39,584 nucleotides of DNA from IMG/VR virus record IMGVR_UViG_2585427708_000019. The stretch is one strand, 5' to 3'. The stretch comes from a virus (Duplodnaviria; Heunggongvirae; Uroviricota; Caudoviricetes). A program made the translations under genes and the position numbers. The notes below the pieces were generated by a model, which saw only the letters and a program-made list of their open reading frames with translations, had not been told where the DNA came from and searched no databases. Positions 6,589 to 8,183 of this stretch are shown here, piece by piece; positions within the stretch are counted from its first letter, which is position 1; every line of letters starts with the position of its first letter.

Positions 6589-7131
6589 ATGGCATATTTT
6601 TATTTCAAATTAGACCGTGTGCAGACAAATAAATATTTCACCAAATATCAACAGACTGTTTTACCGCTACGCAACAGTATTCTTCGGGCATTACTGAAAA
6701 ATACAGGCGCTGCCGGATTGCGCTTAAAGCCGTTTGCCATGGACGTAATCAGTGAGTTTTATTTTTCTGGTGCTCTGCCTGCGGGCTGGCGTAAGCGCGA
6801 TGATGTGGCTTTTATCGGGGACGGACCGTGCTTTATTGCCAGACCTGATGAGTCATGCCCTGAAGGTCCGGCGATTGCCGCAATGATTGAAACCGCTGAA
6901 CGTGAGTTAAGAAAGCGTCCTGATTTCCTTGTCTGGCTCTGTGAAAAGCTGGGGGTAATGAGAATCCCCTCCATGTTTAACACGGACTCCTGGTGGACCC
7001 CGTCGCTCTCCCGTGATGCCCTGTGCGTGGTGTTTAAAGTAGGCGCTTATGGCAGGGAAATAAAAGGGTGTATTCCTGAAGAATGCCAGGAAATTAAACA
7101 TTCTGAATATGTGGCGCTGACGGAGGAATAA
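6589..7131 (+). CDS. Hypothetical early protein
   Basis: 180-aa ORF with AAGGA RBS after a 97-bp gap downstream of gam. Confidence 0.5.
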   Translation: MAYFYFKLDRVQTNKYFTKYQQTVLPLRNSILRALLKNTGAAGLRLKPFAMDVISEFYFSGALPAGWRKRDDVAFIGDGPCFIARPDESCPEGPAIAAMIETAERELRKRPDFLVWLCEKLGVMRIPSMFNTDSWWTPSLSRDALCVVFKVGAYGREIKGCIPEECQEIKHSEYVALTEE

Positions 7132-7134
7132 TTC

Positions 7135-7668
7135 ATGATTGATGCAAAAGTGCTTGAAGGGGTTAAAAACTGGCTGAGTATTTACGGGCGTCTGACCTGC
7201 GGCATTCTGGCTGAAAAAATGAATATGCCGCCATCCTCGATGGTTTATTTTTTGCGTGATGCGGTCGATGCCGGGGTGCTGACGGAATGTAACGGTTTTT
7301 ATGATATTCCGCGTCCCCGCCCGGTGCAGCCGGTTCGTCGCAAATGCAGCCAGGAAGGTGCGGCTGATGATGTTCAGTGGTGCAGCTTCAGAAAATCCCT
7401 GCCGTGGATTGAGGGGCATGATATTCCGTCGATGGCGTGGGAATTTGCTCAGGGCGTACTGACCTGCGAAACCGTTTATGTGGTGGTTGAAGTTGATGAG
7501 CAGGCCATGAAAGAAGGCGTGCCCCAGTTTGTGATGGCGTATATCGACATTCGCCTGGGTGTCATTATCTGCGGTTTAAGCGGCTGGAATATCACCGAAC
7601 ATGTTCTGCGTTACCTGATTGTTGACCGGACGGCTGCACCTGCCGGGATATCTGCGGAGGTGGCGTAA
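7135..7668 (+). CDS. Hypothetical early protein, possible N-terminal winged-helix
   Basis: 177-aa ORF, 3-bp gap from the upstream gene; start overlaps the next ORF. Confidence 0.5.
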   Translation: MIDAKVLEGVKNWLSIYGRLTCGILAEKMNMPPSSMVYFLRDAVDAGVLTECNGFYDIPRPRPVQPVRRKCSQEGAADDVQWCSFRKSLPWIEGHDIPSMAWEFAQGVLTCETVYVVVEVDEQAMKEGVPQFVMAYIDIRLGVIICGLSGWNITEHVLRYLIVDRTAAPAGISAEVA

Positions 7669-8183
7669 TGTTCTTTAAAACATCAAACCCTTCCGCGCTG
7701 GCCGCGTGGCAAAAATATCAGCAGGACTGCCAGAAAGTTAAGGATGAGGCAAAACGCCTTGAGGCCGTGCTGAATGTTGCGTGCCGGTCGGTATTTGTAT
7801 CCGGTATCAGTGGCTTTTGTTTTAAAGGGCTGCGCTTTATGGATGACAAATATCCTTTTCATCGCGACTTATGGCGAAAACCGACTGCGTCGAATGGCTG
7901 GAGCTGCACACCGCGCACATCACGTATTCCCAAAGCCCTGCGCGTTGCCTCTGACGAACTTAACAGTCTGTGGCGTGAATATTCGCCCGTCACGTATGCC
8001 AGAACCGATGCACTGTTGTTCTGGCTGGGTATTGACTTCTCAGCAATATTGCATGGTCCCGTGAAGTGGTTCTGCGTTGACGATGTTATTTACCTTCAGT
8101 GCGAAGATGATTCCGCAAAACGGAAAATGACCGAAATTCTGTCTGATGAGTTTTATGCTGCCGAAAAGCGAGTCGGGGGGTGA
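7668..8183 (+). CDS. Hypothetical early protein
   Basis: 171-aa ORF with ATG overlapping the upstream stop. Confidence 0.5.
   Translation: MFFKTSNPSALAAWQKYQQDCQKVKDEAKRLEAVLNVACRSVFVSGISGFCFKGLRFMDDKYPFHRDLWRKPTASNGWSCTPRTSRIPKALRVASDELNSLWREYSPVTYARTDALLFWLGIDFSAILHGPVKWFCVDDVIYLQCEDDSAKRKMTEILSDEFYAAEKRVGG

Follow-up and report, generated by a model that had tools for sequence, protein, structure and literature searches.

Gene content of the interval between gam and gemA

The window analyzed here, a stretch of 39,584 nucleotides (nt) held as IMG/VR record IMGVR_UViG_2585427708_000019, is a Mu-like Escherichia coli prophage. We examined positions 6589-8183, an interval between gam and gemA that carries three open reading frames (ORF1 to ORF3) and belongs to the semi-essential early (SEE) operon. 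Across the prophage, the gene order is repressor (minus strand), ner, A, B, five small ORFs, gam, ORF1-ORF3, a helix-turn-helix (HTH) protein, four small ORFs, GemA, Mor and endolysin. At the DNA level, the window is ~95% identical to regions described as "inserted bacteriophage Mu-like phage" in two Shiga toxin (Stx) phage records, and of 5,426 complete E. coli genomes, 233 carry the three-gene stretch, including many O157:H7 strains. In RefSeq, all three products there are labeled "hypothetical protein", with a single "Mu-Gp12 family protein" given to a 97%-identical copy of ORF3. The features of the interval and its left boundary are as follows.

5961-6491, plus strand: gam, encoding a Mu-type, DNA-end-binding Gam (Pfam Phage_Mu_Gam, E = 1.5e-41; phrog_491); left boundary of the variable interval
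6575-6579, plus strand: AAGGA, Shine-Dalgarno-like sequence before ORF1
6589-7131, plus strand: ORF1, 180 amino acids (aa), ATG start
7122-7127, plus strand: GGAGGA, Shine-Dalgarno-like sequence before ORF2
7135-7668, plus strand: ORF2, 177 aa, ATG start
7656-7660, plus strand: GGAGG, Shine-Dalgarno-like sequence before ORF3
7668-8183, plus strand: ORF3, 171 aa, ATG start

An earlier reading of this DNA (here termed the initial annotation) had described three coupled ORFs of these lengths and positions, with their own ribosome binding sites and a 97-bp gap after gam. The lengths, the coordinates and the gap (6492-6588) were all confirmed, as was the gam gene by its Pfam match. The genes are tightly packed: a Shine-Dalgarno-like sequence precedes each start, 3 nt separate the ORF1 stop from the ORF2 ATG, and a TAATG overlap contains both the stop of ORF2 and the start of ORF3. 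Among related loci anchored on ORF1 or on gp12 (the ORF3 family, see below), the TAATG overlap is invariant (64 of 64 cases) and the 3-nt spacing nearly so (46 of 48).

Pooled over close relatives, the ratio of nonsynonymous to synonymous substitutions (dN/dS) was 0.43 for ORF1, 0.18 for ORF2 and 0.20 for ORF3, with 0.10 for both B and Gam. Thus, all three are protein-coding genes under purifying selection, ORF1 being the least constrained of them. The notion that they are chance open frames or decayed remnants has nothing in its favor beyond the missing annotation (the three "hypothetical protein" labels in RefSeq), and it is refuted by dN/dS values well below 1, by hundreds of full-length homologues across the three ORFs, by confident AlphaFold2 models and by the conserved spacing of starts and stops.

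Sequence matches of ORF2 and ORF3 to Mu gp11 and gp12

Judged from sequence comparison, ORF2 is Mu gp11 (Mup11, formerly E10-E12). The two proteins are 67% identical over residues 1-177 (tblastn, Mu 6424-6951), ORF2 matches phrog_1949, and Pfam model PF25754 (Gp11_C) scores 136.6 bits against a cut-off of 27, with its whole 78-position length aligned to residues 90-167. The position of ORF2 after gam in the early operon is also that of Mu gp11. In an alignment of 26 homologues, gp11 consists of a conserved N-terminal domain (~1-58), a variable Pro/Arg-rich linker (~59-85) and Gp11_C (90-167). The N-terminal domain, which is acidic (isoelectric point [pI] 4.7), gave only sub-threshold matches to winged-helix models, namely HTH_20 in 6 of the 26 members (best E = 0.012), and further sub-threshold matches to WH4_Lhr, PCI and HTH_CodY.

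As a separate observation, a terminator-like hairpin with a T-run (GCCATCCTCGATGGT TTATTTTTTG) lies at 7230-7254 within gp11, where the coding sequence specifies the conserved PSSMVYFLRD segment; terminator-like sites in the region are no more numerous than expected by chance.

ORF3 is the equivalent of Mu gp12 (Mup12, formerly E13; "Mu-Gp12 family", PF26885), with 53% identity over residues 1-168 (E = 7e-52) and a match to phrog_2314 at E = 9e-83. All ORF3 homologues at 45-92% identity carry PF26885 as a precomputed assignment; our local Pfam scan of ORF3 returned no PF26885 match, the model being possibly missing from that copy of Pfam. The AlphaFold2 model of gp12 (ORF3) has a predicted local distance difference test score (pLDDT) of 88.9.

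The gp12 family also has an unannotated trace in phage SfMu, which was reported to carry no homologue of Mu orf12 (PMC4406740). At 3441-3971 of the SfMu genome (NC_027382), we found a gp12-homologous frame whose first ~20 codons are out of frame and which has no start codon. Its sequence suggests a degenerated gp12, in a phage that has an ORF1-type paralogue.

ORF1 and the DUF5420 family

Neither Mu nor D108 has a counterpart of ORF1. Relatives of ORF1 occupy the same slot between gam and gp11 in SfMu and in three Yersinia Mu-like phages; the SfMu protein, ORF11 (ACQ86_gp11), is 40% identical to ORF1 and is named "DUF5420 family protein" by NCBI, as is P0014 (38% identity to ORF1). ORF11 had been described as unique to SfMu (PMC4406740). 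ORF1 also matches phrog_2260 (E = 7e-75). Against the Pfam DUF5420 model itself (PF17457, gathering score 26 bits), neither ORF1 nor its SfMu homologue gave a match even at E <= 1, in a library that does contain the model and in which it matches distant relatives at 28.5 and 36.6 bits.

A profile of the ORF1 family, run against 1.84 billion representative sequences, found only 27 clusters, all of 180-210 aa. Among the proteins it retrieved are P0185, P0187, P0189, P0193 and P0196 (E = 3e-10 to 1e-5), all of which are PF17457-positive by precomputed assignment. Because the ORF1-family profile finds these distant PF17457-positive proteins, ORF1 is assigned to a putative divergent, enterobacterial Mu-like branch of DUF5420 (the SfMu ORF11 type). 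Conserved across the ORF1 family are an N-terminal YFKxD, a PDRRYKEGK-like loop, PxFSxW and, at the extreme C terminus, EIK[KH]SEF[IV]ALTEE. The AlphaFold2 model of ORF1 (pLDDT 94.8) gave five Foldseek matches in BFVD at E <= 1e-3, all of them unnamed or "uncharacterized", and thus no by-name test of a link to gp12.

Remote similarity between ORF1 and gp12

By eye, ORF1 and gp12 resemble each other at three places: YFK and FFK near the N terminus, PDRRYKEG and PRRSRIP in a basic loop, and EIKxSEF and EILSDEF at the C terminus. BLASTP detected no significant similarity between ORF1 and ORF3, and two initial profile comparisons with hhalign gave P = 0.39 (shallowest alignment, not significant) and P = 0.0058 (a narrower gp12 alignment). 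The gp12 alignment was then widened by three distant relatives, from Klebsiella ST405-OXA48phi1.1, SopranoGao (gp63) and Vibrio PS14A.1 (p0028), and the comparison reached a probability of 75%, P = 2.5e-5 and a score of 37.6 over 156 collinear columns; the link is convincing only with these three relatives added. In the controls, reversed alignments scored ~11, the gp11 family scored 12, and 100 block shuffles scored 16.1 ± 2.4 (maximum 22.7).

The AlphaFold2 models of the two proteins have a common order of elements, i.e., beta1, a long helix, a beta-hairpin, two helices, three strands and a C-terminal helix, with an extra hairpin (residues 67-86) in ORF1 where gp12 has a loop. When the DSSP states of the two models were placed on the hhalign alignment, 110 of 155 positions agreed, compared with 20-53% in shifted registers. 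Taken together, the profile comparison identifies ORF1 and gp12 as probable remote paralogues, so that gp12 and the DUF5420-type genes would form one family, and the models predict that both proteins share one alpha/beta fold that is apparently unrepresented among solved structures.

Independent filling of the slots on either side of gp11

The gene content of relatives was assessed in two sets of loci. With ORF1 or gp12 as the anchor, every locus had the order (Gam)-ORF1 type-gp11-(gp12); this sample is biased by its anchors. We therefore rely on 75 distinct Mu-like loci anchored on gp11 itself, in which both an ORF1-type gene and gp12 are present in 33 cases, gp12 only (the Mu arrangement) in 23, an ORF1-type gene only in 6, and neither in 12, with 1 locus unresolved. 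The 12 loci in which gp11 stands without such a neighbor show that a complex of gp11 with a gp12-type protein is not obligatory, and the statement that gp11 never occurs without a gp12-type neighbor, which the biased set had suggested, was withdrawn.

In this interval, gp11 is the constant gene. Different phages fill the slots on its two sides independently of each other: the one before it is empty or holds one or two DUF5420-type genes, and the one after it holds gp12 or unrelated small genes. Tandem ORF1-type (DUF5420-like) genes precede gp11-gp12 in one Mu-like prophage (L032, 5455-6599), and in loci that do not carry gp12, unrelated small genes come next after gp11. This also bears on how the initial annotation had grouped the genes. 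Co-occurrence across Mu-like phages, which it had put forward as a check, shows gp11 as the fixed gene; the three genes do not travel as one set. A scan of genome contigs returned only 2 loci.

Several of these loci carry other features of their own. Those in the series L157 and L168-L180, which have neither an ORF1-type gene nor gp12, carry at ~3530-3730 a small ORF after gp11 with a lipoprotein-like N terminus (MIKSIGFVLLVGTCGNDACD...), and L158 and L164 have an ORF of up to 252 aa after gp11 instead; both kinds are alternative cargo of the same slot. Gam was undetected in L032 and several other loci.

Outside Mu-like phages, relatives of DUF5420 and gp12 stand singly, in unrelated temperate and lytic phages. 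Such single genes occur in a Klebsiella transposable phage, in the early regions of Lastavirus and near a DNA ligase in a Vibrio phage; others adjoin N6 or C5 DNA methyltransferases and a D5-type primase, and one directly follows a CI-type repressor in a lambdoid-like prophage. In a prophage from a Candidatus Izemoplasma metagenome-assembled genome (L110), the second gene downstream of the DUF5420 gene is a 107-aa ORF (6829-7149) that matches Pfam Gad1 (Gabija anti-defense 1) at E = 3.5e-17, over positions 159-202 only of the 293-position model. On a siphophage-like contig, a lone DUF5420-like gene (L118, 6001-6594) is encoded on the strand opposite to its neighbors, with a tape-measure gene and distal tail genes on either side. 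Such a position is typical of morons and suggests that expression of the family need not depend on an early operon.

On a metagenomic contig (L112), a 207-aa protein encoded directly upstream of the DUF5420 gene (5327-5950) has a weak match to DNA_pol3_beta_2 (beta-clamp). Mu C has been reported to bind the clamp (PMC12867686), and this clamp-like neighbor may be of interest in that light.

Operon surroundings of the three genes

The tight packing does not end at position 8183. It runs on through five more genes, the first of them at 8187-8738, to gemA at 9764-10273, and the three-gene block in which the initial annotation had seen a unit is therefore an arbitrary slice of a longer operon. Two features adjoining the three genes are given below.

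8187-8738, plus strand: next gene of the operon, coupled to the block, encoding a basic HTH protein of 183 aa (phrog_323, "transcriptional regulator, D5-like", E = 1e-58; pI 10.1)
6532-6560, plus strand: GC-rich hairpin GGCGC...GCGCC in the gam-ORF1 spacer, with TTTTAATTATGG before it (centroid structure)

The gene at 8187-8738 begins 3 nt past the gp12 stop, and its product has weak matches to Sigma70_r4 and Myb HTH models; among relatives, its presence after gp12 varies. The Mu protein with the same PHROG-type label (gp9) is encoded upstream of gam instead.

The spacer downstream of gam, including the hairpin, is conserved in the window, Mu and SfMu, whichever gene comes next, and ORF1 is thus an insertion between the hairpin and gp11 relative to Mu. 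The whole spacer (6492-6588) folds no better than shuffled sequences (z = 0.01), and the hairpin has no T-run and no Rfam match; scans of block and spacer for Rfam families, promoters and terminators gave nothing significant. Possible roles of the hairpin are to mark the boundary of a module, to direct RNA processing or to serve as a pause site.

Two further observations concern ORFs in the vicinity. The adjacent small ORFs at 5379-5651 and 5629-5949, upstream of gam, have a common N-terminal motif (MSKVVRIIFEYKEH and MSKVRVIFEFKHV) and relatively high dN/dS values (0.31 and 0.42, respectively), and look like tandem paralogues. An antisense ORF of 170 aa extends over 6907-7419.

Searches for function

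The initial annotation had read no recognizable motifs in the three proteins, presented them as the best candidates in the window for an undescribed early function, and named anti-restriction and host takeover as the usual roles at that time of expression. The first point does not hold for ORF2 and ORF3, which fall in named families (Gp11_C and Mu-Gp12). Nor is the set undescribed: Mu gp11 and gp12, for which Pfam and PHROG families exist, represent ORF2 and ORF3, DUF5420 and SfMu ORF11 represent ORF1, and the E. coli genomes counted above carry all three. As had been proposed, the genes are nevertheless functionally uncharacterized and lie after gam in a Mu-like early operon: gp11 and gp12 are annotated in the Mu record as hypothetical only, so that the homology found is not to Mu early proteins of known housekeeping function. 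A literature search for gp11, gp12, Mup11/12, DUF5420, their Pfam and PHROG accessions and SEE-region genes returned no functional data.

Scans of the three proteins gave no match in NCBIfam, no PADLOC family at E <= 1 and no match to anti-defense Pfam families. Sequence and profile searches against PDB returned only noise (MIF at E ~0.3 with the gp11 profile; E = 0.2-1.5 with the single proteins and the ORF1-family profile), and structural comparison with solved anti-defense proteins gave no match. No recognizable catalytic motif was seen in the conserved columns of the families, and no ORF1 relative, each being 180-210 aa long, is fused to another domain. The anti-restriction proposal finds no support here, as the PADLOC, NCBIfam and PDB searches were all negative and the pI values of ORF1, ORF2 and ORF3 (7.5, 4.9 and 8.7) are unlike those of DNA mimics such as Ocr and ArdA. 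A DNA mimic of that type was rejected on the net charges (+1, -6 and +4, respectively), with no Pfam, PHROG-function or PDB match to suggest one.

The Mu record links just kil, gam and gemA/mor to particular ORFs. For the SEE region, the genetically defined functions sot, arm and cim have been reported in addition to kil, gam and gemA/B (PMC4553209); our literature search found no ORF-level assignment for them.

Interpretation

The identity of the three genes is far more certain than their mechanism. For the latter, we lean, at a little below even confidence, toward gp11 as the conserved SEE protein and ORF1 and gp12 as exchangeable accessory paralogues, all three being small binding proteins that act soon after induction. 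More specifically, three small, soluble, non-enzymatic proteins would be translated from the early transcript as soon as the prophage is induced or a cell is infected, and would be accessory to transposition without belonging to its core. They would bind a macromolecule of the host or the phage and in this way either condition the cell for phage DNA replication or blunt a host response, with the winged-helix-like domain of gp11 as a possible binding element. Several points weigh against this proposal. The function it assigns has no annotated homologue, and binding is inferred from the lack of both a catalytic motif and a known fold; early timing is assumed from Mu biology; the winged-helix match of gp11 lies below threshold (best E = 0.012), in a domain with an acidic pI of 4.7; the comparison of the ORF1 and gp12 models is indirect, consisting of DSSP strings laid on the hhalign alignment; and 12 of the 75 gp11 loci have no DUF5420 or gp12 neighbor.

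Three other explanations were weighed against it. The genes could be the unassigned SEE functions arm (amplified replication of Mu) or cim (control of immunity), with gp11, alone or together with gp12, boosting Mu replication or modulating the repressor. The short list of assigned ORFs in the Mu record leaves room for this, gp11 is in every Mu-type locus examined and is constrained (dN/dS 0.18), and its N-terminal domain is winged-helix-like, if below threshold; classical maps have arm to the right of gam. We consider this assignment unlikely, as the literature offered no mapping to individual ORFs, many natural Mu-like phages can dispense with ORF1 and gp12, and relatives of gp12 and DUF5420 occur in non-transposable phages (Lastavirus, a Vibrio siphophage, lambdoid-type prophages), so that a transposition-specific role is unlikely for ORF1 and ORF3. 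Less likely still is that gp11 and a gp12-type partner (gp12 or ORF1, interchangeably) form an obligate heteromeric DNA-binding regulator whose stoichiometry is set by translational coupling. This would fit the near-invariant TAATG overlap (64/64) and 3-nt spacing (46/48), the 62 of 75 gp11 loci with at least one gp12-type neighbor, the decay of gp12 in SfMu, which has ORF1, and the winged-helix-like domain of gp11; it is at odds with the 12 gp11 loci that have no gp12-type neighbor at all and with the many other phages in which gp12 and DUF5420 relatives occur without gp11, and tight packing is common to the whole operon rather than to these pairs alone.

The remaining explanation is a dedicated counter-defense module, in which at least one of the three proteins inhibits a bacterial immune system, possibly one that senses Gam-protected DNA ends. 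A variable slot between conserved genes resembles the accessory regions that gather counter-defense genes, no other gene measured reaches the dN/dS of ORF1 (0.43, next to 0.42 for the ORF at 5629-5949), and DUF5420 relatives stand beside DNA methyltransferases and, in one case, two genes from the Gad1-like fragment. Moreover, ORF1 lies directly downstream of gam, and Mu-type Gam licenses Gabija and sensitizes phages to it (PMC12407980). We nonetheless hold the module to be improbable, given that the three proteins match no anti-defense Pfam or PADLOC family, carry no DNA-mimic charge and resemble no solved anti-defense structure, that the evidence from gene context is anecdotal (one or two loci each), and that a dN/dS of 0.43 is still purifying selection. 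The broader host-takeover or counter-defense idea, which draws only on early timing, the accessory pattern of presence and absence, and gene contexts, is a reasonable guess.

Our preferred reading of gp11 as a conserved SEE protein flanked by exchangeable paralogues can be carried further in one speculative direction, to which we give little credence: DUF5420 and Mu-Gp12 would constitute a widespread phage superfamily with an unsolved fold, serving as swappable counter-defense or host-takeover effectors around gp11, possibly against immunity triggered by Gam-protected ends (e.g., Gabija), with gp11 as their conserved partner or regulator. What is new here is the predicted paralogy of DUF5420 and Mu-Gp12, their apparently unrepresented fold and the slot architecture around gp11; gp11 and gp12 themselves have long been catalogued.

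Even in Mu, a model phage, most SEE genes have no assigned function, and arm and cim have no assigned gene. The present result narrows the experiments to three small genes, with a natural either/or variation to exploit. If counter-defense proved true, a new fold and a new type of locus would enter the anti-defense catalogue, with relevance to the Mu-like prophage of many O157-type E. coli; if not, these would be ordinary conserved phage accessory genes.

Comparison with known systems

Mu gp11 and ORF2 are alike in collinearity, length (176 and 177 aa, respectively), coupling to gp12 and placement in the same operon after gam. They differ in that the window has an extra gene, ORF1, between the gam spacer and gp11. 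Likewise, Mu gp12 and ORF3 agree in position and in the TAATG overlap with gp11, whereas they have diverged further from each other than have Mu gp11 and ORF2, and the gp12 family extends beyond Mu-like phages, at 25-30% identity, to a Klebsiella Lastavirus, a Klebsiella transposable phage and a Vibrio phage. With Ocr and ArdA-type anti-restriction proteins, the likeness is limited to early timing and small size; those proteins are strongly acidic and have no sequence, profile or fold similarity to the three described here. The closest system for ORF1 is DUF5420 as represented by SfMu ORF11, with which it has the motifs YFKxD, PDxxxxEG, PxFxxW and C-terminal EIKxSE[YF]xALTEE in common; in contrast to DUF5420 members recognized by Pfam, ORF1 falls below the Pfam threshold, and the link to gp12 proposed here appears in neither family's description among the sources consulted.

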